Virus record (IMG/VR): IMGVR_UViG_2519899565_000007
Source: a virus
Taxonomy: Duplodnaviria; Heunggongvirae; Uroviricota; Caudoviricetes
Length of the DNA stretch: 22,986 bases
Strand: one strand, 5' to 3'
Under the pieces are notes generated by a model. The model was not told the origin of the DNA. It saw only the letters and a list, made by a program, of their open reading frames with translations, and searched no databases. The position numbers were made by a program, and so were the translations under genes. Below, in pieces: positions 2,503-21,824 of this stretch. Within the stretch, counting starts at the first letter, position 1; each line of letters starts with the position of its first letter.

Positions 2503-4977
2503 TTATTGCGGAGTGACATCCTGAGGTCGCCACCAGTATGTCTGGTTAAACTCTTTCTTCGAACGTTGCTCCATTTTACGCAAATAGCCTGGTGAAAAAT
2601 ACTCCTGCATCTGGTTAAAGATCATGTGATCGAGAGCCGCCTTCAAGTACCAGAGATTCGCACCAGGCATCAAACCTTTCCCCAGCTTCACCAGATCACC
2701 ACCAGTCTGCTCACTCTTCCCTTCCACAGCATTTAACGGTATGCCCTGAGCAATCTTCACTACGTCATCAACCAGACCAGCTACCGGGCCAAGCATCGAC
2801 GCCAGCGCGCCGCTTCCGTACCTAGTGTGATCTGACAATAAAAAGTCACCGTAAAGGCCAAGACCACCACCTTTCAGTAGAGCACCAAGCCAGAATTTTG
2901 CGGCATCTTCTCCTGTCATCTCTCGAGGATTACGACCAGACGCAAGGTCGTTAAGTTGCTGCGACAAAGCGCCAAGAATGGTCGTACTGGCAATAAACGT
3001 CGCAATATATGCCGCACGCCCACCAGCAGACGGCATACCCATAGCGCGTGACCAGTGACGCATAACAACCGAGATAGGGAACGATTTAAACAGGAAAACA
3101 CTTCTCGTTAATTCACCTTTCCATGTTCCACGCTGAATACCAGAACCGGTTATCAGTTGCTCACGTGCTCCCGGTGTAATAACAGCCATATCAACTTCTT
3201 CAGTTACGGCACCGAGCAGTTTACGCATTGCCTCAAATTTCACGCGTTCAGGCTCACCAAGATGTTTAACTGCTGAATCAGGGATACGCATAATGCTTTC
3301 CGGTGTCAGCATCGTATTATTACCGTTCCCCCAGTCCTCCTGTTGCGCCAGCTTCCATACGCTCCAGTCTGTGTCAGTAATCCCTTTACTTTTCAGGATA
3401 CGAAAATCAGAGTCATCGAGGCTACGAAGGTCTGGTGTCCGTGACACTACTTCTCCCAGGCTTCCCATCATGGTTACGCCATAGGCGCGCTTGTGCGCAT
3501 CTGACCATGCTGTAAGCCCACTGGCACGCATTACCGCCGTTGCCGCCCAACGAGACACAGACGGCCCCATATTATCCATCGCCCAGCGGTTAACGCTGCC
3601 AAGTAGAGATTCCATCGCCAGGCCAGCGCGGCGCGCCCGCGCAAGCTCAGTACGGTTCGTTGGGTCCATAGCTTCAAGCTGGTTGCGAAATAACTGGTTC
3701 ATTGGAAGGTTGGTAACCTTCGCAGACAGATACATGGTTCCAAGATCAGAGAACGATGACAGCAACGCGGATCCGAGTCTGCTGGCAACCAGCCAGTTGC
3801 GGATATTGTCAGACCATCGCGCGATGTGCGGATTCGCTACAGGCTGTGTTTTTCCGGAAATAAAGTTGTACAAGTTCTCTGTTTTGTTCGCCAGACGCTC
3901 GACGCTACCGGTTTTACTCGGGTTAGCTGTTGCCGTTTCTGCCTTAACCTGATCAAGAAGAGAGCGGAAAACATGATCGGGGTTTGGGCCATATGTTTCC
4001 ACCAGCGCAATATCTTTACTGATACCTTCCAGGTGACCGACCATGATTTCCCATAGAGAGCGATCGCCATAAAGTTGCTGATATTGCAGATAGGAATCTG
4101 CATCTTTGAAATGTATCTGTCGTGATGCATTACCACGGTTAGCACGTACGCCGGAAATTCGCATTCCGGTATCAGTAAGCTTATTCAGCCCACCAGTAGC
4201 GATCGTGTTATAAGCCTCTCCAAGAAATGCAGACAACTCGGCATCGTTCATCAGTTGTCCATCGGCTCGGGTATAATATTTGCGATCCAGCTTACCTATA
4301 ACATCGCTAACCCATTTATCTTTTGATACCGCCCCAACCTTTTCCATAGAATGATGTTGAGGGATCCCCCAGTTTTCGAGATAGCCAATGTCCCCACCAG
4401 CATCATTAAACCGGCGGCGCAGTAGATCTGTCACTTCTCTCCACGCCTTAGCACCTTTTCTTGCTTTAGCATTGCCAGTATTTTGCCCTCGCATTTCATA
4501 TACCAGGTCACGCACGCCCGCTTCATCTTCAAACAGGCCAAAAAAGCGAGGATCGACTGCTTCAAATGCCTCCTGCAATTGACTCAATGCATAATCACGA
4601 GTGGCTTTTGTTCTGGATTCAACAGAGAGGAAATTCGATTTACCGTCTGCATTAAAAGCAATAGTACGGTTAAGAGCGCCAAGTTTCCCATCAGCCCCTT
4701 GATAGCTATTGATAAATTTATCCAATCTCTGACGTGCGGCTATAGTGAGGGCCACACGACGTTTCTTTAATGCCGCTTCTCGCTGTAATTCTTCAGATGC
4801 CAATTGTGCTGCACGATACAACCGTTCTGATTCGGAAAGTTGTCGCCACGACATCGGGTCATCACGAGCAATGGAGCGCATATTTCGATAAATGCGGTCT
4901 TCAATGTTCTGTATTTCTCGCGCCGTTAACGTGCGCTGCGCCGCCTGCTGGACCGCTTGTATACATTCCTGTCTCAT
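2503..4977 (-). CDS. Internal virion / ejection protein (824 aa), gp16-like by position
   Basis: Long ORF, ATG at 4977, five nt after the upstream stop; position equivalent to T7 internal core proteins; C-terminal hydrophobic segment. Confidence 0.7.
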   Translation of the reverse strand: MRQECIQAVQQAAQRTLTAREIQNIEDRIYRNMRSIARDDPMSWRQLSESERLYRAAQLASEELQREAALKKRRVALTIAARQRLDKFINSYQGADGKLGALNRTIAFNADGKSNFLSVESRTKATRDYALSQLQEAFEAVDPRFFGLFEDEAGVRDLVYEMRGQNTGNAKARKGAKAWREVTDLLRRRFNDAGGDIGYLENWGIPQHHSMEKVGAVSKDKWVSDVIGKLDRKYYTRADGQLMNDAELSAFLGEAYNTIATGGLNKLTDTGMRISGVRANRGNASRQIHFKDADSYLQYQQLYGDRSLWEIMVGHLEGISKDIALVETYGPNPDHVFRSLLDQVKAETATANPSKTGSVERLANKTENLYNFISGKTQPVANPHIARWSDNIRNWLVASRLGSALLSSFSDLGTMYLSAKVTNLPMNQLFRNQLEAMDPTNRTELARARRAGLAMESLLGSVNRWAMDNMGPSVSRWAATAVMRASGLTAWSDAHKRAYGVTMMGSLGEVVSRTPDLRSLDDSDFRILKSKGITDTDWSVWKLAQQEDWGNGNNTMLTPESIMRIPDSAVKHLGEPERVKFEAMRKLLGAVTEEVDMAVITPGAREQLITGSGIQRGTWKGELTRSVFLFKSFPISVVMRHWSRAMGMPSAGGRAAYIATFIASTTILGALSQQLNDLASGRNPREMTGEDAAKFWLGALLKGGGLGLYGDFLLSDHTRYGSGALASMLGPVAGLVDDVVKIAQGIPLNAVEGKSEQTGGDLVKLGKGLMPGANLWYLKAALDHMIFNQMQEYFSPGYLRKMEQRSKKEFNQTYWWRPQDVTPQ

Positions 4978-16287: not shown

Positions 16288-16584
16288 TCACTCCTGTTCA
16301 CTGGCCTCTTTGGCCATCTTCAAATACTGTTCAGGGCAATGCGCCATAACGCGCTGAAACAGTTCCAGCGCCAGATTGCGTTGCCCCTCATTAAATGCCA
16401 TTGCCATAGCATCCATCGGAGAGATAGCGGAAAACACCCGGCCTTTCTCCAGCACAGACCAGACAACGCGACGCCCCTGTTCACTGCTCATGACAAAGCG
16501 AATGTCATCAATTTCACGCTGTGCCATGTCACGTTGCTTACGGGCGTTTTCTTCTTTCAGTTGATCGTCTTCGTAATCTGTCAT
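16288..16584 (-). CDS. Hypothetical small head-module protein (98 aa)
   Basis: ATG at 16584 overlapping the portal stop (ATGA); AGGGTGGG upstream. Confidence 0.55.
   Translation of the reverse strand: MTDYEDDQLKEENARKQRDMAQREIDDIRFVMSSEQGRRVVWSVLEKGRVFSAISPMDAMAMAFNEGQRNLALELFQRVMAHCPEQYLKMAKEASEQE
16521..16532. repeat. Copy d of the palindrome family: GTGCCATGTCAC (1 mismatch), flanks match copy a (TGTG-CATGTCACGT)
   Basis: Direct comparison with 2001-2016; lies inside the 5' part of the 98-aa gene. Confidence 0.5.
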
Positions 16585-18260
16585 TGTGATTGCCCACCCT
16601 GACCACTAACTGCATTCGCCATAGCTGACAAAACACTCGGATCCGAAGTTTTAGCTTCGCTTAGCGTCTTGGCACCCTGTGCCGCCGCCATCCCCATCGC
16701 CATCATTTGTTGCTGCTGTTGCTGCTGTGCCCGTTGCTGGCGAGCCTGATCAACCTGTTCCTGCGGAACAATGACGGTTGGAGACACTCCGGACATATCA
16801 GCGAATGCATCGATCGCCTGATCAACGTTGAGTTTGTCGAGAGCTTCTGGTTTCGCTTGCGCAAGTTGACCAATGAAGTTAACCGTGGACGCCAGACTGG
16901 ACAGGCCGATAGACTTCTGCGCCTGAGCCATGACGGAAATGTATTCGACCTTCAGGGGCATGCCTTCCATCGCGTCAGGCGGTGGCGGCAGCATGTTTTT
17001 ACGCACCATCATCGAGAAAGCGCGGTCAATGAGAGGATTAAGACATTCGTCGTTCAGACGCTCCAGAACCGGCCCCAACATCAGAAGTTTTTCTTCTTTC
17101 ATTTCGATCACCGCTTCAACAGGCATCGAGCGGGTATTGATGTTCTGCAACATCATGAACAGATCGACAAAGTAGGCGCTGTTAATGATTTGACGAGTGT
17201 CCTGAATGTCTGCTACCAGATCTGCTGTACTGGGGTTAACCAGATAAGCAGGCCTGAAACCATCCTGACCAGTAATCTGATCGATATACGTGATGTCGCC
17301 AGGAAGAAGGGAGGCGCGCTGATTCTTGAGGGAAGTCGGAGCAACCATCGGCGGATTGGTGGCTTTATCAATCAACTGCGACTTGCGCTTCTGAAGAAGC
17401 TGCAATGCCTTAACAGGTCCAAGCGCCAGCATACCCGGGCATGATGATCCATAAACATCTTCGCCGTTAACTTCCCAGCGCGGAGCCATAATTGGAAACT
17501 CATCGAATCCGGACTCACGCAACAACTTGTCGTTATCGCCGCCAACCTCGTAATAAACCGATTTGAATGGCTTGTTCTTGCTATCCAGCTTCGATGTATC
17601 GCGGTCAATGTTCGGGTAAACCGAATGCATCACCTCAATCCACTTCTCGTAGGTGCCAATTTCCCACATGCTTTTTACGTATTCGCTGACGTTATTTAGC
17701 CCGAACTCCTGAACAAGCTGACGAACAGTCATAGAGAACTTGCGAAAACAGGTGTCCACACTGCCACGAGGTGAGTTAGCCAGGTAGTAACTACCTATCG
17801 GGAATGGCATTGTGCGAATGATGTCCTCGTCATCCTCCAGCACCGCCATTGCACCAGTGCTGTATGTGCCGAGGCTTCCGTATAACTGCGGAAGAGACTG
17901 GTAGAGATTCGAATTATTGAACATATCATTCATGCGGTTCTGCACCGCCTCAAGCCACAACTTAACAGGGCCATAATCCATCATTTCAGGATCTGGCGTA
18001 GCCAGGCGAAACCACGGACGCGCGGGGCTTGTGATGCCTGACATCATGCCGCTGGCGAGAGTGCGCGCCGCCATAGTCCCGGTCGAATCAATAATGCGTG
18101 TATTGCGTCGATCGTTACGGTTGACCTCAGAAGTCAGAAAGCGGGAACCACGCGGGTTGATGTAATCACTCAACTCGCGCCAGTGCGGCTCGAACGACTG
18201 ACGCTCGCTTTCAAGTTGTGCGAACTGTTTGTTCAATCGCTCTTTAGTTGTTTCCGCCAT
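16581..18260 (-). CDS. Portal protein (559 aa), T7 gp8-like head-to-tail connector
   Basis: Size and position after the large terminase; C-terminal Gln/Met-rich tail (QQRAQQQQQQQMMAMGMAAAQG) resembles the T7 gp8 C-terminus as recalled; GGAG RBS. Confidence 0.8.
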   Translation of the reverse strand: MAETTKERLNKQFAQLESERQSFEPHWRELSDYINPRGSRFLTSEVNRNDRRNTRIIDSTGTMAARTLASGMMSGITSPARPWFRLATPDPEMMDYGPVKLWLEAVQNRMNDMFNNSNLYQSLPQLYGSLGTYSTGAMAVLEDDEDIIRTMPFPIGSYYLANSPRGSVDTCFRKFSMTVRQLVQEFGLNNVSEYVKSMWEIGTYEKWIEVMHSVYPNIDRDTSKLDSKNKPFKSVYYEVGGDNDKLLRESGFDEFPIMAPRWEVNGEDVYGSSCPGMLALGPVKALQLLQKRKSQLIDKATNPPMVAPTSLKNQRASLLPGDITYIDQITGQDGFRPAYLVNPSTADLVADIQDTRQIINSAYFVDLFMMLQNINTRSMPVEAVIEMKEEKLLMLGPVLERLNDECLNPLIDRAFSMMVRKNMLPPPPDAMEGMPLKVEYISVMAQAQKSIGLSSLASTVNFIGQLAQAKPEALDKLNVDQAIDAFADMSGVSPTVIVPQEQVDQARQQRAQQQQQQQMMAMGMAAAQGAKTLSEAKTSDPSVLSAMANAVSGQGGQSQ

Positions 18261-18274
18261 TTCAATGACTCCGG

Positions 18275-18481
18275 TTACTGACCAAGCAGCGTTTTACCGC
18301 TGGTATTAGCGGTTGATGTGTCGCCCTGAGAACCGGTAAGCAGCGTAGAACTACGACCAGCAGCAGCGCGACGGCGACGTGTTTCTTCGTCGCGGGCATC
18401 AACAACGGCGGCATCCTGCTCCTGTGGTGCTGCCTGAACTTCTGGTGTTGCAGGCACTGATGGTGAGCTACCCATGCACAT
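18275..18481 (-). CDS. Hypothetical small low-complexity protein (68 aa) immediately upstream of the portal gene
   Basis: ATG at 18481 with GGAG 8 nt upstream; its initiation region (ACGGAGTCATTGAT-ATG) nearly duplicates the portal one (CCGGAGTCATTGAA-ATG). Confidence 0.45.
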   Translation of the reverse strand: MCMGSSPSVPATPEVQAAPQEQDAAVVDARDEETRRRRAAAGRSSTLLTGSQGDTSTANTSGKTLLGQ

Positions 18482-18508
18482 ATCAATGACTCCGTACGCA
18501 ATTAAATT

Positions 18509-18587
18509 ATTACCAATTTAACCACATATGATTTATTTATCGTAGATAGTTGACATTTAACGCACAAATTATTACCTTTCAGGTAAT
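18509..18587. repeat. Copy 2 of the shared regulatory element, with a 12-bp insertion carrying TTGACA (18550-18555); perfect 17-bp palindrome ATTACCTTTCAGGTAAT (18571-18587)
   Basis: See copy 1; lies between the minus-strand 68-aa/portal genes and the plus-strand tRNA unit. Confidence 0.7.
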
Positions 18588-18908
18588 CAAAGGGTTCATT
18601 CCGGTTATTAACCTGACTGGCTTGTCGTTAAATTGAACAGGTGGAGTGAGCTTTTATTTTGAGCAGTACGGCGTATGGCACATGCGCCGATAGCGGTCTG
18701 GATACGTTTAAGGGGCACCCTCCCTTGCTCGGGCAAACGAACCAGGTAGCCGGGATGTGCAAGTCGAGCGGTTTTATTCCGCGCACGGGGATTCACCATC
18801 CCGGCGATTCGGTGTGACGCCTCGGAAGAGACGAGGGTACAACGATGAGAGCATTTATGGAGCCGCGACAAAGTGTGGCGCCTTAACAGGCTAAGTGCTC
18901 TCAGCGTT
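18588..18908 (+). other. About 320 bp ORF-free, GC-rich, hairpin-rich segment upstream of the tRNA; candidate structured RNA or long tRNA leader
   Basis: No plus-strand ORF above ~25 codons; several local stems (e.g. CCTCG-N7-CGAGG at 18820-18836); followed directly by the tRNA. Confidence 0.3.
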
Positions 18909-18985
18909 GTGGCATTAGCTCAGTTGGACAGAGCAACCGCCTTCTAAGCGGTTGGTCGCAGGTTCGAATCCTGCATGCCACGCCA
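18909..18985 (+). tRNA. tRNA-Arg (anticodon UCU), argU-like, CCA encoded
   Basis: Hand-folded cloverleaf: acceptor GTGGCAT/ATGCCAC, U8-A9, D-arm GCTC-AGTTGGACA-GAGC, anticodon arm ACCGC-CTTCTAA-GCGGT (UCU at 18943-18945), T-arm GCAGG-TTCGAAT-CCTGC, discriminator G, CCA. D, anticodon and T arms match E. coli argU as recalled. Confidence 0.9.
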
Positions 18986-19028
18986 GAATCACGCCTAAGG
19001 ACCGTGATGCCAGAAGTTCCAGGTGCTT

Positions 19029-19070
19029 GGCGGTGATAGTTTCCCTTGAAGGACTATCACCGCCCTTTTT
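19029..19070 (+). terminator. Strong intrinsic terminator after the tRNA (12-bp perfect stem plus CTTTTT)
   Basis: GGCGGTGATAGT (19029-19040) pairs with ACTATCACCGCC (19053-19064), followed by TTTTT at 19066-19070. Confidence 0.85.
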
Positions 19071-19100
19071 ACAGCAGGACGCCATTGCGATGACTTCATG

Positions 19101-19116
19101 CTGTAAACCCGTACAG
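19101..19116 (+). promoter_or_regulatory. Weak LexA-like site CTGTAAACCCGTACAG (CTGT-N8-ACAG), between the two tandem terminators
   Basis: Correct half-site spacing but the centre is GC-containing and the flanks are non-consensus. Confidence 0.25.
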
Positions 19117-19148
19117 CCACGGAAAGCATAACTCATTGCTTCCAGTTC

Positions 19149-19172
19149 GCCCGGTTCGCCGGGCATTTTTTT
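19149..19172 (+). terminator. Second intrinsic terminator/attenuator (GCCCGG-UUCG-CCGGGC followed by A and U7) ending 11 nt before the start codon of the 123-aa ORF
   Basis: 6-bp GC stem with UUCG tetraloop and seven Ts (19166-19172); then AAGGTGAG (SD) and ATG at 19184. Confidence 0.7.
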
Positions 19173-19183
19173 AAGGTGAGATT

Positions 19184-19555
19184 ATGAACGACCAGCAAAT
19201 CGAAAAAGAAATCGTTGAGAAAGGCAAAACGGCACCGCGCGTTACGCCAGACCATATCGAAGGCATTATTGCTCAGGAGGCATATTTCACAGCAGAAGAT
19301 GGTGCCTTTGGCAAAGCCATAAAAGCGAAACATACTGGCGGAGAGGTAAACTACCAGCCGCACGAATCACTTTCTCTGCTGACGTTCTGCGTCCTGGTGC
19401 TGCGCAACGGCTTCACCGTCACCGGAGAGAGTTCCTGTGCAAGTCCGGAAAATTTTGATGCAGAAATTGGTCGGAAGATTGCCCGGCAGAATGCTGTAAA
19501 CAAAATCTGGATGCTCGAAGGTTACTTGCTGAAGCAGAAGTTAAGCGAGCAATAA
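19184..19555 (+). CDS. Hypothetical 123-aa protein (moron), antisense to the structural operon
   Basis: ATG with AAGGTGAG SD; flanked by intrinsic terminators on both sides; no family recognised by eye. Confidence 0.6.
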   Translation: MNDQQIEKEIVEKGKTAPRVTPDHIEGIIAQEAYFTAEDGAFGKAIKAKHTGGEVNYQPHESLSLLTFCVLVLRNGFTVTGESSCASPENFDAEIGRKIARQNAVNKIWMLEGYLLKQKLSEQ

Positions 19556-19559
19556 CACC

Positions 19560-19571
19560 GTGGCATGTCAC
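19560..19571. repeat. Copy b of the palindrome family: GTGGCATGTCAC (1 mismatch), 4 nt after the 123-aa stop and 3 nt before a terminator hairpin
   Basis: Direct comparison with the copies at 2003 and 21825. Confidence 0.55.
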
Positions 19572-19574
19572 AAA

Positions 19575-19602
19575 CAGCCAGCCTATGAGCTGGCTTTGTT
19601 TT
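19575..19602 (+). terminator. Intrinsic terminator (AGCCAGC-N6-GCTGGCT then TTGTTTT) at the convergent 123-aa/large-terminase junction
   Basis: 7-bp stem 19576-19582/19589-19595 with T-tract 19596-19602; A-tract upstream may give weak activity on the minus strand. Confidence 0.7.
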
Positions 19603-19645
19603 ATCCTCACCAGAGGATATCAACGACATTATCCCCACCAGCGGA

Positions 19646-21121
19646 TTAAGCATAAGGGTCATAATCCGTTATGGCCCTTCCCTGCTGGCTTTGCTGTCCT
19701 GGTATATTTATGCGTTTCGAGACCGGGAAAGCAAACGTCAGCAGTAGCGCATCGCCTTTACCAGGAGAACGCCCAAGACGCTCTTTGATATCTTCCTTCG
19801 GTTCGATAACGATTTTACCGTCCACACGAACTTTGTACTCTGCCGCCGACAGGTCGTCTGCAGTTTCTTGGTCATCCAGCATGCCGCCCAGCCTCAGCCA
19901 TGTCTTACATGAGTTGAACATCTCCCCACGCTTGTTAAGCATCTGCGGGTCAGTGGACGCACCGCCGAACGGAACAAGTTGCCATGTACGTCCCCAGCCA
20001 TCACCGATTGACTTCAAACCGGTTCCATAACCGAAGTCGATGAACACCGCGTCAGCCTGATACTGGTCTTCAAAGTCAGCGATACGCTTCGCCATAATCA
20101 GATCGTCGGTGGTCTTGTTACCAGTCCATAGCACCTTACTGTGCAGCCCCTGCCGCAGGTATATCACAGCGTCATCAACGCCGGAGTATGCCGGGTCAAC
20201 GCCGATTATCACCGGAGCATGTGCAACCTGCGCAGCGGTTACCACCCGTTTCATTGCCTCGTCAGTAAGGCCGGTAGGGATAAACTGCAATTCAGATGCA
20301 TCCGGGAATATGCCGCGCACACGGATTTTAACGAAGTCGCTGTCTTCCCCGTAGTCATCAACCCATTTCTGCAACTGCTGTTTGTTAGTGCCTTCCACCG
20401 TCCGGCTGTCAATCTGCGCAGTTTTCCAGCGGTGTTTATATTTGCGGAAACATTCGCGGAAACGCCCGGTGTTACGTGTAGGGTTTCCGAATGCCACCCA
20501 GATAATCTCAGTGTCTTCGTCCGTCAGCGCACCCTCTGCTACCTCCCACACCAGATCGGCAATGTTGGATGCTTCGTCGAATACCACGATGATGCGTTTG
20601 CGCTCGTTGTGTAGTCCGGCGAATGCCTCAGTGTTGTGCTCAGACCAGGGGATTGCGTCAGCTCGCCACCGCTTGTCGTGCCCAGGGTCATTGCTGTACA
20701 TCGCGGTAGCGGTACAGGTAAACCAGTCTTTCGTGATAGCAAGGTTCGACCACTTGATAATTTCCGGCCAAGTCTTCGTTCGTAGCTGGTTTTCGGTGTT
20801 GGCGGTCACCACGACCTTACAATCCTCGCAAGTGGACATGCCCCAGTTGATCAGCATTGAGATGAATGCGGATTTACCAATACCGTGACCAGAAGCACGT
20901 GTCAGCATAAGCGGCTGATATCGCGTCTCTGGATTCTGCAGGTGATCACGTATCTCTCGGAACGCATCGGCCTGCCACTGACGTGGACCGGTGGCATGTG
21001 CCAGTTCAGTACCCTCTTCCCCCCACGGGAACGCATAGAGGGCATAGCCAAGCGGATCGTGAGTGAACCCTGCAATATCCTCGATTAACTGCTCTTCAGG
21101 AGATAACGCTGTATCTGTCAC
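19646..21121 (-). CDS. Terminase large subunit (491 aa)
   Basis: Size and position; ATPase-like segments (VVVTANTENQ, Walker-B-like VVFDEASN) and a C-terminal Asp-rich nuclease-like region (VIIGVDPAYSGVDDAVIY); GTG start at 21121 overlapping the small-terminase stop (GTGA). Confidence 0.85.
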   Translation of the reverse strand: MTDTALSPEEQLIEDIAGFTHDPLGYALYAFPWGEEGTELAHATGPRQWQADAFREIRDHLQNPETRYQPLMLTRASGHGIGKSAFISMLINWGMSTCEDCKVVVTANTENQLRTKTWPEIIKWSNLAITKDWFTCTATAMYSNDPGHDKRWRADAIPWSEHNTEAFAGLHNERKRIIVVFDEASNIADLVWEVAEGALTDEDTEIIWVAFGNPTRNTGRFRECFRKYKHRWKTAQIDSRTVEGTNKQQLQKWVDDYGEDSDFVKIRVRGIFPDASELQFIPTGLTDEAMKRVVTAAQVAHAPVIIGVDPAYSGVDDAVIYLRQGLHSKVLWTGNKTTDDLIMAKRIADFEDQYQADAVFIDFGYGTGLKSIGDGWGRTWQLVPFGGASTDPQMLNKRGEMFNSCKTWLRLGGMLDDQETADDLSAAEYKVRVDGKIVIEPKEDIKERLGRSPGKGDALLLTFAFPVSKRINIPGQQSQQGRAITDYDPYA

Positions 21122-21714
21122 TGATTGCCATCCTGACGTTCTTTCAGTCTCTTCCTGGCTGCCGCTATGCGATCAGCAATTGTCACATTCACATTAACAT
21201 CCAGGCGTTCTTTGAATGCGTTGACGTCGACGTGCTTACCAATCAGTTCGAGGTTCTTCACCTTGTCAGGCCATTTAATTTTTTTGAGGATTGTCTCTAT
21301 CGAATCCTCGTTCATGTTCATGATGGTCGATGACAGATCAAAGCCACTAAGCGTAGTGCGCCAGATTTTCGGCCACTCACGGATTGGTTTAAGGCTCCCA
21401 TCGTCGTTGAGGATATCGATCACGTCCATCTGGTCGATCTCCACCAGGCGCATGAGAACGTAATCAGCACTGACGCGCATTCGTTTGTTGCGCTCCTCCA
21501 TCAACTCGGCAATCCGTTTTTGAATGCGTTCATCGCGCATCATGACACTGGCTTTAACTGCCGCTGTATTTGGGGAGAATCCTGCGTTAATCGCTGCCTG
21601 AGTCTGGTTTTCAGGCGTTTTGATGTATGACTGGCAATAAGCCTCCTGCATTGCTGTTAGTGGCTTAAATTGCGTTGATTTGCGTTTATAGGTTTTAGGT
21701 TCAGCAGGCATCAT
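21118..21714 (-). CDS. Terminase small subunit (P27-like family), about 198 aa
   Basis: Immediately upstream of and coupled to the large terminase; motifs ...AINAGFSPNTAAVKAS... and ...LELIGKH... typical of phage small terminases as recalled. ORF-track start 21792 is TTG; tandem ATGs at 21714/21711 follow GGTGG. Confidence 0.75.
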   Translation of the reverse strand: MMPAEPKTYKRKSTQFKPLTAMQEAYCQSYIKTPENQTQAAINAGFSPNTAAVKASVMMRDERIQKRIAELMEERNKRMRVSADYVLMRLVEIDQMDVIDILNDDGSLKPIREWPKIWRTTLSGFDLSSTIMNMNEDSIETILKKIKWPDKVKNLELIGKHVDVNAFKERLDVNVNVTIADRIAAARKRLKERQDGNQ

Positions 21715-21721
21715 AACCACC

Positions 21722-21753
21722 GTGGTAATAGTTACCGTTGTGGTAATAGTACC
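21722..21753. repeat. Tandem imperfect direct repeat GTGGTAATAGTTACC / GTGGTAATAGT-ACC just upstream of the small-terminase start
   Basis: Two ~15-bp units separated by GTT; each contains GGTAA-N-TTACC-like half-sites related to the ATTACC/GGTAAT half-sites of the 17-bp palindrome. Confidence 0.55.
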
Positions 21754-21756
21754 ATG

Positions 21757-21783
21757 CAAAATAAAGCCGCCATAGTTGGCGGC
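21757..21783 (-). terminator. Intrinsic terminator (GCCGCC-N6-GGCGGC followed by UUUAUUUUG on the minus strand) upstream of the terminase genes
   Basis: 6-bp GC stem 21766-21771/21778-21783; minus-strand T-tract is the rc of 21757-21765. Confidence 0.65.
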
Positions 21784-21824
21784 AGTATTCAAAACACATC
21801 AAATTCATCATGCATAATCCACTC

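Follow-up and report, generated by a model that had tools for sequence, protein, structure and literature searches.

The closest described relatives, by position, of the RNA reported here are the put sites of phage HK022 (putL and putR), which are non-coding, are transcribed first from the early promoters of a lambdoid phage that lacks N, and stand before the terminators to be passed, at a position equivalent to that of nutL and N. A put RNA is about 70 nt long and folds into two stem-loops, and the phage carries two copies, one after PL and one after PR (PMC9378689). Here we describe a structured RNA of about 240 nt (positions 18669–18908, plus strand) in a 22,986-nt stretch of viral DNA, referred to hereafter as the window (IMG/VR record IMGVR_UViG_2519899565_000007), which is a phiV10/epsilon15-type (Uetakevirus) prophage of Escherichia coli. 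The RNA belongs to a unit inserted between the genes for the large terminase subunit (TerL) and the portal, where it is followed by a tRNA-Arg(UCU), by terminators and by the gene for a 123-residue protein of the Acb4 family. Two further groups of RNAs are pertinent. In the P1 and P7 c4 RNAs, the P4 CI RNA and RNAs of the MALAT1–mascRNA type, a structured RNA is cut from a longer transcript beside a tRNA-shaped element. GOLLD and ROOL are large, conserved, structured RNAs of phages and prophages, of unassigned role, that often lie beside a tRNA gene.

Like put, the window RNA lies after an early promoter and before terminators, an arrangement seen in the window, in phage cdtI, in a third genomic context described below and in Kosakonia. 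It differs from put in being about three times larger, in having at least six helices and a pseudoknot, in occurring as one copy per genome, in being followed by a tRNA or a tRNA-like module, and in being found outside the lambdoid phages as well; no sequence similarity to put was seen in a comparison made by eye only. In anatomy, a core beside a tRNA or tRNA-like module, it resembles the c4, CI and MALAT1–mascRNA types, with cleavage in the window RNA predicted only; it is much larger than the c4 and CI RNAs and has no match to the Rfam C4 family. It also has no Rfam match to GOLLD or ROOL and, unlike these, it is smaller, occurs in Enterobacterales and is consistently placed as a 5′ leader of an early operon. 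The RNA is therefore a member neither of put, nor of the type III antitoxin RNAs, nor of any Rfam family. Its position appears put- or nut-like, and its anatomy is reminiscent of phage RNAs that RNase P matures.

The original prediction, made from the sequence of the window, had described a structured non-coding segment of 320 bp, within which the 240-nt RNA is real. The minimum free energy of the region 18570–18990 has a z-score of −5.4. A distant blastn search found 18668–18910 to be about 82% identical to non-coding DNA of the lambdoid phages cdtI, mEp460, Ayreon and 2H10 and of Stx2c phages. A pattern scan of IMG/VR yielded at least 120 stretches, which together with phage records gave at least 131 loci with at least 103 distinct cores; more than 150 loci were recovered with nhmmer and pattern scans. 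Twenty-five representatives, less than 93% identical to each other, were aligned, and RNAalifold returned helices P1, P2, P4 and P6 and a long-range helix, P7. Paired cells amount to 98.6–98.7% on the predicted structure, compared with 31–45% when the partners are slid by one to three columns. Compensatory double changes are present at 13 pairs of the nested structure and at 14 of 46 pairs when the pseudoknot is included, a level that was reached in none of 500 shuffles; the slid controls gave one to four.

Domain I (18669–18836, plus strand, as for all parts of the RNA), defined by RNAalifold and pair counts over the 25 representatives, is composed of P1 (18669–18689), P2 (18694–18700 with 18743–18752), the invariant strand GGAUGUGCAAG (18753–18763), the variable hairpin P3, P4 (18788–18791 with 18799–18802) and P6 (18820–18824 with 18832–18836), the last with a GAAGAGA loop. 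A pseudoknot is proposed between the P4 loop (CACC, 18794–18797) and a downstream strand (GGUG, 18811–18814); its four base pairs are 100% paired, and a switch from C–G to A–U is seen in three sequences. P7 (18839–18857 with 18892–18910) encloses a hypervariable insert of about 40 to more than 100 nt, shows compensatory changes in five pairs and shares its last two nucleotides with the first two of the tRNA. Long single-stranded stretches, such as GGUAGCCGGAAUGUGCAAG, are invariant across all 25 representatives. Ahead of domain I, a 5′ leader hairpin (18588–18668; −22 kcal/mol, z = −2.1) is variable in length and conserved only among the uetakeviruses. One further feature of P7 is that the GUUG at its 3′ end can pair either with a CAAC at the base of the helix or, where a tRNA-like module is present, with a second CAAC after the module. 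The two helices are mutually exclusive, and a conformational switch is possible; neither alternative is proven, since the basal P7 pairs show one-sided changes only.

No coding signal was found in the RNA segment: variable columns are nearly equal in number at the three codon positions (37, 38 and 41), and few of the length differences are multiples of three. A hidden protein gene was considered, given stop-free minus-strand frames in several homologues and an annotated open reading frame (ORF) in mEp460, and was ruled out by the lack of codon periodicity. An Rfam 15 cmscan of 18000–20000 at E ≤ 1 gave no hit beyond the tRNA and a single chance match in antisense, which rules out known RNA families at that threshold. 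Literature searches with exact conserved segments of the RNA found no paper describing it, and those on phiV10 and its tRNA, on yfdP and CPS-53 and on structured prophage RNAs found nothing relevant. The Pas prophage small RNAs, which are restricted to Escherichia and Shigella and lie in other contexts, are set apart by description only. Some likeness to boxA and boxB was noticed in the GAAGAGA loop of P6 and in the 3′ strand of P7, but it is too weak to claim. The segment, which the original prediction had allowed might prove neither conserved nor structured across homologues, is thus both, as the covariation demonstrates, and it looks like an undescribed family of phage RNA.

Among 5426 complete E. 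coli genomes, 889 carry the RNA core, in every case without annotation. An exact 19-mer of the core was found in species-representative genomes of Kosakonia, Citrobacter, Klebsiella, Enterobacter, Kluyvera, Phytobacter, Buttiauxella, Pseudescherichia, Pseudocitrobacter, Superficieibacter and Candidatus Erwinia dacicola. The RNA is accordingly present in several genera of Enterobacterales, and the stretch GGUAGCCGGAAUGUGCAAG is exact in prophages of about 12 genera. The 19-mer also occurs on two contigs (L221 and L233) labelled as Oscillospiraceae and Bacillota metagenome-assembled genomes, which are probably mis-binned contigs of enterobacterial phages.

Three genomic contexts were distinguished among the matches listed. 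The first is lambdoid (about 74 loci) and consists of a cI gene of one of two immunity types, a terminator, a promoter, the RNA and a yfdP-DUF2303-yfdR operon. The second is that of the uetakeviruses (about 48 loci), with the layout of the window. The third has a third immunity type (nine loci), in which a helix-turn-helix repressor gene is followed by a promoter, the RNA, the terminator T1 (described below) and the first ORF, with about 330 nt of further hairpins and a second terminator between T1 and this ORF. In the first and third contexts the RNA comes immediately after the repressor gene and shares its orientation; in the uetakeviruses it follows an operator-bearing promoter. Nearly all examined copies lie at the 5′ end of an early operon; the full-length copies read in detail have a sigma-70-type early promoter upstream and one or two intrinsic terminators before the first ORF, and the promoter carries an operator wherever it is readable.

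Phage cdtI shows what this promoter is in lambdoid phages. The promoter ahead of the RNA reads TTGACA-aTGTACCCTTGAGATACA-TAATGT, with TGTACC-N5-GATACA between the −35 and −10 hexamers, and the same operator type is found between cI and cro, which identifies this promoter as PL. In cdtI Q is present and no N is annotated, and more generally, in lambdoid phages without an annotated N, the RNA occupies the nutL/N position after PL. A 451-nt query covering the tRNA-like module, T1 and the region just upstream of yfdP has similar sequence in 2782 of 5426 complete E. coli genomes, where it is unannotated; in CPS-53 of E. coli K-12 yfdP is present and the leader has been lost. In prophages of Kosakonia and Phytobacter domain I is retained, but P7 is either missing or shifted several hundred nucleotides away.

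Several other features were observed around these leaders. In Escherichia sp. MOD1-EC7003 (L226, 1–340), domain I lies directly after a tRNA, in the 5′ untranslated region of a DnaB-like helicase gene, without P7, tRNA-like module or T1, and represents a further context; the upstream tRNA is tRNA-Met(CAU) by ARAGORN in comparable loci, the program having not been run on the MOD1-EC7003 locus itself. In leaders of the third context (L084, L037 and L068, between about −130 and +600 from the core start), six to eight short hairpins with GGAAAGAC-type loops flank the core and T1 on both sides, and the P6 GAAGAGA loop is of the same kind. Such arrays of GGA-loop hairpins suggest that an RNA-binding protein, CsrA or a factor of the boxB/N type, may bind there repeatedly. 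In cdtI (2916–3005), the interval from T1 to yfdP holds a perfect 15-bp inverted repeat (ACAAAACAGAGAAGA ... TCTTCTCTGTTTTGT) that flanks about 58 nt and lies immediately before the ribosome-binding site of yfdP. Hundreds of loci conserve this repeat, which might be cut by RNase III or might control translation.

In the window, the RNA is part of a unit that fills the gap 18482–19645 in the minus-strand structural operon. The gap is bounded by the TerL gene (19646–21121) and by a 68-residue gp3-like ORF (18275–18481), beyond which lie the gene for the small terminase subunit TerS (21118–21792, PF03592) and the portal gene (16581–18260, PF12236), respectively. Over 18400–19700 the window shares 95% identity with phiV10 and with the O157 typing phages 9 and 10, and the E. 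coli strain 2015C-4944 chromosome matches its RNA core with 100% identity; the unit is shared widely among phiV10-like phages. The RNA segment, tRNA, terminators and ORF that the original prediction had placed between terminase and portal are all found there, and the gene map supports its description of an accessory plus-strand unit antisense to the structural operon. The first 480 nt or so of the predicted transcript are non-coding and consist of the 5′ hairpin, the 240-nt RNA, the tRNA, a small hairpin and T1. The unit is best explained as an early-lytic accessory operon of a phiV10-like temperate phage.

The candidate promoter of the unit has a −35 hexamer, TTGACA (18551–18556, plus strand), that is a perfect consensus as read from the sequence; Tyrion and epsilon15 share it, and a Klebsiella phage has TTGACC, with a single base changed. 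The −10 hexamer is likely TACCTT (18574–18579, plus strand), which would place the start of transcription near 18586–18588. A 17-nt palindrome, ATTACCTTTCAGGTAAT (18571–18587), overlaps both the −10 and the start, and it has a second copy with one mismatch at 1630–1646 (ATTACCTTTCAGGTGAT), with 0.02 matches expected by chance. Upstream, the element TATTACCAATTTAACCACATATG (18508–18530), of the form TATTACC..AACCACATATG, the first part of which resembles an operator half-site, is repeated directly at 1579–1601 with 78% identity and is kept in epsilon15, Tyrion and Klebsiella phages. Both the palindrome and the upstream element therefore recur near 1.6 kb, in line with the shared promoter element that had been proposed for this locus.

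The homologous palindrome is annotated in the epsilon15 record as ‘protein_bind repressor, lysogeny’. Sites with the same annotation in epsilon15 lie downstream of the repressor gene (three copies), upstream of TerS and, next to gp19, at 19895–19911, the last of these positions being the equivalent of the 1630 site of the window. From its match in sequence and position to these annotated sites, the immunity region itself lying outside the window, 18571–18587 is predicted to be a binding site of the phage immunity repressor (Rep/epsilon15 gp38 type). Since the operator covers the −10 and the start, the unit should be silent in the lysogen and on early after induction or infection; judged by annotation and position, its promoter should be under repressor control. 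The presence of the phage repressor's operator type on its promoter, which marks the unit as early-lytic, is a point that the original prediction missed, as it did the occurrence of the RNA in lambdoid phages just after PL.

A second promoter region (1579–2003) has the same two-part operator layout and no structured leader. The repeats at 1579–1601 and 1630–1646 lie upstream of an 85-residue plus-strand ORF (1722–1979) with its own terminator-like hairpin at about 1983–2003. The product matches phrog_450 and has weak C-terminal similarity to an anti-repressor PHROG. In epsilon15, gp19 with its annotated repressor site corresponds to this region.

The tRNA-Arg(UCU) (18909–18985, plus strand) is called by ARAGORN and matches Rfam RF00005 over its full length (73.3 bits, gathering score 29), so that its earlier identification holds. 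Its cloverleaf is complete, its CCA end is encoded, and its anticodon loop is the same as that of host argU. In completeness and in its UCU anticodon it is like other phage-borne tRNA-Arg(UCU) genes, such as argN and argO of Stx phages; it differs from these in being fused in register to an upstream structured RNA and in lying behind what is predicted to be a repressor-operated early promoter. The RNA core ends in GUUGUGG, and in 33 of 131 loci among the matches listed the GUGG forms the first four bases of tRNA-Arg(UCU), the junction being identical in all 33. Most other loci have a tRNA-like module at the same point in place of the tRNA, as in the yfdP leaders of L006 (2740–2880) and L136 (3640–3790) and in many other loci. 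The module has an acceptor-like helix (GUUGUGG/CCACAAC) and D-like and T-like arms that are compensatory between variants, and its D-like loop (GCUGAU) is complementary to its T-like loop (AUCAGC).

Codon use is consistent with a role for the tRNA in translation. In the genes of the window, AGA accounts for 5.9 and AGG for 3.5 of every 1000 codons, and both are concentrated in the large tail and injection genes and are almost absent from the head and terminase genes. The corresponding E. coli averages are about 2 and 1.2–1.6 per 1000. Because AGA and AGG use exceeds the E. coli average, a role in codon supply is plausible, and the tRNA may plausibly provide an AGA decoder for the AGA-rich tail and injection genes; the counts favour the rare-codon role that had been suggested.

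Downstream of the tRNA, a small hairpin (AUCACG-CCUAAGGAC-CGUGAU, 18988–19008, plus strand) is conserved in leaders of the uetakevirus type and of the third context, where it is followed by T1; in cdtI-type leaders T1 comes directly after the tRNA-like module. T1 (19029–19064, with a U-tract to 19070, plus strand) has a 14-bp stem (−23.1 kcal/mol, z = −5.1), conserved flanks (UUGGCGG..CCGCC-U5-ACA) and a loop with a UCCCUUGA motif. T2 (19149–19164, with a tail to 19172, plus strand; GCCCGG-UUCG-CCGGGC, A, U7; −12.7 kcal/mol) is conserved in epsilon15 and adjoins the ribosome-binding site of the sole protein gene. The unit ends with T3 (19576–19595, the element extending to 19605, plus strand; −12.3 kcal/mol), 41 nt from the convergent TerL stop codon, where phiV10 has a terminator annotated on the TerL strand. 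A terminator scan gave five terminator-like sites, compared with 1.5 expected; scan and folding together corroborate the tandem terminators and the downstream terminator of the original prediction.

A deletion has removed from the epsilon15 leader (2790–2870, compared with 18700–19064 of the window) the tRNA, the 5′ strand of T1 and the greater part of the core, so that the apical loop of P2 now runs into the loop of T1. In relatives a UUCCCUUGAUGCU-type motif is found in each of these loops, which suggests recombination between short repeats, and the sequences indicate that the deletion likely arose between two copies of UUCCCUUGAUGCU, one in each loop. A UCCYUUG-like motif, resembling an anti-Shine–Dalgarno sequence, is present in the P2 and T1 loops of nearly all homologues. 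Co-variation of the two loops was also considered; similarity is 6.0 within and 5.2 between RNAs, consistent with a shared motif, and co-evolution is not demonstrated.

The sole protein gene of the unit (19184–19555, plus strand) encodes 123 residues and starts with an ATG 11 nt after the T-tract of T2, as had been noted, behind a Shine–Dalgarno sequence (AAGGUGAG, 19173–19180, plus strand). The protein was thought to have no recognizable family; this is incorrect, as it matches Pfam PF13876 (‘Gp49 family’, Phage_gp49_66) over profile positions 1–82 of 82, with E = 4.6e-34 and 117.2 bits against a cut-off of 27. All homologues among the matches listed (at least 120) have PF13876 and are often named ‘Gp49 family protein’ at NCBI. 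A 2024 preprint (PMC11722364) equates PF13876 with the family of Acb4 of SPO1, a sponge for cyclic dinucleotides that counters CBASS; in that study the family had 1,331 members, and all eight homologues tested bound 3′3′-cGAMP. The ORF thus falls into a known family, which has now been characterized.

Structural comparison agrees with this assignment. A phmmer search of the PDB found Acb4 (9E4W) at E = 0.0023, with about 20% identity to the SPO1 protein. An AlphaFold2 model was obtained with a pLDDT of 87.6, and Foldseek placed chains of 9E4W at ranks 1–13 (probability 1.00, target-normalized TM-score 0.58–0.69), the next hit having E = 0.08, so that Acb4 was the only PDB match. The predicted fold agrees with the Acb4 protomer, having three antiparallel strands, flanking helices and a long C-terminal helix, and the NF..EIGR motif is shared; the 123-residue protein has an extra N-terminal region. 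Of six residues that contact 3′3′-cGAMP in Acb4 and were mapped by the phmmer alignment, F48, F62 and I66 are kept (F77, F91 and I95 here), whereas the guanine-reading glutamate and the phosphate-contacting tyrosine and threonine are replaced (E49 to T, Y57 to A and T70 to I). With three of six contacts kept, ligand preference may differ. On the strength of sequence and model, the protein is a putative cyclic-dinucleotide sponge against CBASS. No promoter was detected in a scan between T1 and the Acb4-family gene, and the gene therefore depends on read-through.

The gene in this position varies between phages. In the Klebsiella uetakevirus ST512-KPC3phi13.3 (2685–3206), a Tad2-like gene (PF11195), of the family of the anti-Thoeris sponges, lies behind the same RNA, tRNA and terminators. 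The slot holds other genes in Tyrion, including a DUF551 gene, and an unrelated 115-residue gene in TL-2011b; in lambdoid phages the same RNA precedes the yfdP operon. Different genes thus occupy the slot behind the same RNA; the RNA and the protein are not obligate partners, and the slot is an exchangeable cargo site, which often holds anti-defence sponges and may be a hotspot for anti-defence genes. As a whole the cassette is an already-known sort of element, an early moron with an anti-defence gene, with an ordinary tRNA and terminators and a new member of the known Acb4 family. The original prediction had allowed that the unit might turn out to be a common and already characterized moron; it is common in phiV10-like phages and its protein family is now characterized, but the RNA has no entry in Rfam.

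We tentatively favour, at somewhat below even confidence, the reading that the structured RNA acts in cis as a leader for RNA-mediated antitermination, by analogy functionally like HK022 put. The sigma-70 promoter would be shut by the repressor in the lysogen and would fire on derepression or infection, with transcription antisense to the structural genes. The RNA would fold as it emerges and make RNA polymerase resistant to the terminators that gate the downstream genes, and RNase P would free the tRNA. Polymerases passing T1 and T2 would then express the Acb4-family sponge, which would soak up the cyclic-dinucleotide alarm signals of CBASS early in infection, and the tRNA-Arg(UCU) would decode AGA in the tail and injection genes. 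Antitermination was chosen because the RNA is nearly always at the 5′ end of an early operon, because terminators stand between the RNA and the first gene in the full-length leaders that were read, and because the RNA holds the nutL/N position in lambdoid phages without an annotated N. The epsilon15 deletion also argues for it, as the event that removed the RNA removed the 5′ strand of T1 as well.

Several observations weigh against this reading and, of these, the dispensability of domain I in most yfdP leaders, the single copy per genome and the in-register tRNA fusion are the reasons for which confidence is held so low. Domain I is absent from 65 of 80 yfdP-anchored leaders, most of which keep the tRNA-like module and T1, so that it is unnecessary for reading T1 there. 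By nhmmer, cdtI and the window each contain a single copy of the RNA and epsilon15 a single truncated remnant, and a second copy comparable to putR was found in none of the three. Fusion in register to a tRNA or tRNA-like module fits the release of a free RNA by RNase P at least equally well. With fully processive antitermination, antisense transcripts would run on into the terminase genes. A consensus promoter scan of the window did not call the promoter of the unit, owing to its weak −10 hexamer, so that we only infer its activity. Finally, the literature searches on the RNA, on phiV10 and its tRNA, on yfdP and on structured prophage RNAs found no transcript data or experiment. The bolder proposal that domain I and P7 constitute a new class of RNA-only antiterminator, which replaces N at PL in a large group of enterobacterial lambdoid prophages without an annotated N and was captured by uetakeviruses to bring early anti-defence cargo past two terminators, is doubtful; an RNA freed by RNase P that captures a conserved host factor would be just as novel.

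The alternative that survives best is a free early RNA acting in trans, which we consider rather unlikely. RNase P would cut at G+1 of the tRNA or module and release an RNA of about 320 nt with its 3′ end guarded by P7, much as the P1 c4 and P4 CI RNAs are matured by RNase P. The released RNA would capture a conserved host factor or a component of defence, such as RNA polymerase, an RNase, a protein like CsrA that binds GGA loops, or a toxin directed at tRNA; T1 would merely end the RNA gene, and the Acb4-family gene would be expressed by leakage. The identical tRNA junction of the 33 loci, with the tRNA-like module at the same point in most others, is as expected for such processing, and the invariance of long single-stranded stretches in the 25 representatives, with GGUAGCCGGAAUGUGCAAG exact across genera, also suits this reading. 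Domain I is present or absent within otherwise identical leaders and moves among unrelated phage types in the manner of a moron, and its neighbours in the uetakevirus slot are anti-defence genes of the Acb4 and Tad2-like types. However, no stand-alone copy of the gene was found away from the 5′ end of an operon, no partner was identified, and some copies in the third context have no tRNA-like module between the core and T1.

Improbable, in our estimate, is a leader that senses a ligand or signal, a riboswitch or attenuator that would tune read-through to a cue such as an alarmone or a defence nucleotide signal. The position in a 5′ untranslated region in all contexts, the pseudoknotted multi-helix core with invariant unpaired nucleotides, the one or more terminators downstream and the two alternative CAAC partners of GUUG in leaders with a tRNA-like module, which might form a switch, would all suit it. 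The distance from core to T1, however, is 120–250 nt and includes a whole tRNA, unlike known expression platforms; the downstream genes are heterogeneous, and cmscan gave no Rfam riboswitch match at E ≤ 1. We give the same low standing to the view that the RNA is a mere structured 5′ leader of the tRNA precursor, which would shield the transcript from Rho and RNases and aid maturation, the function of the unit lying in the tRNA and Acb4. The long untranslated precursor, the strong structure (z = −5.4) and the use of AGA above the level usual in E. coli are consistent with this view, but a genuine tRNA is missing downstream of about three quarters of the copies among the matches listed, and likewise in all 24 species-representative genomes, and the invariance of unpaired sequence far exceeds what mere structure needs. 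A type III toxin–antitoxin-like pair, the analogy drawn in the original prediction, shares with ToxIN the order of structured RNA, terminator and small protein, a fit in layout alone, and is rejected as next to impossible: TRF returned no rows at a minimum score of 30 and there is no repeat family in the region (the lack of tandem repeats had been noted before), the protein belongs to the Acb4 sponge family and is not an endoribonuclease like ToxN or a match to any PADLOC defence-protein model, and the cargo varies while the RNA is constant, so that there is no fixed pairing.

A pseudoknotted RNA of about 240 nt is thus carried by one in six complete E. coli genomes, in spite of the intensive study that prophages and lambdoid early operons have received. 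Because the slot headed by this RNA in phiV10-like phages carries sponge genes of the Acb4 and Tad2 types, the RNA and its operator could serve to flag early anti-defence cargo, and because phiV10-like phages serve as O157 typing and reporter phages, an early expression site under repressor control is of practical interest. Release of the RNA from its transcript would make it a new phage RNA directed at the host. As an antiterminator, it would represent a new mode by which an RNA reprograms RNA polymerase, and would give lambdoid phages without N a second, independent way to run their early operons.

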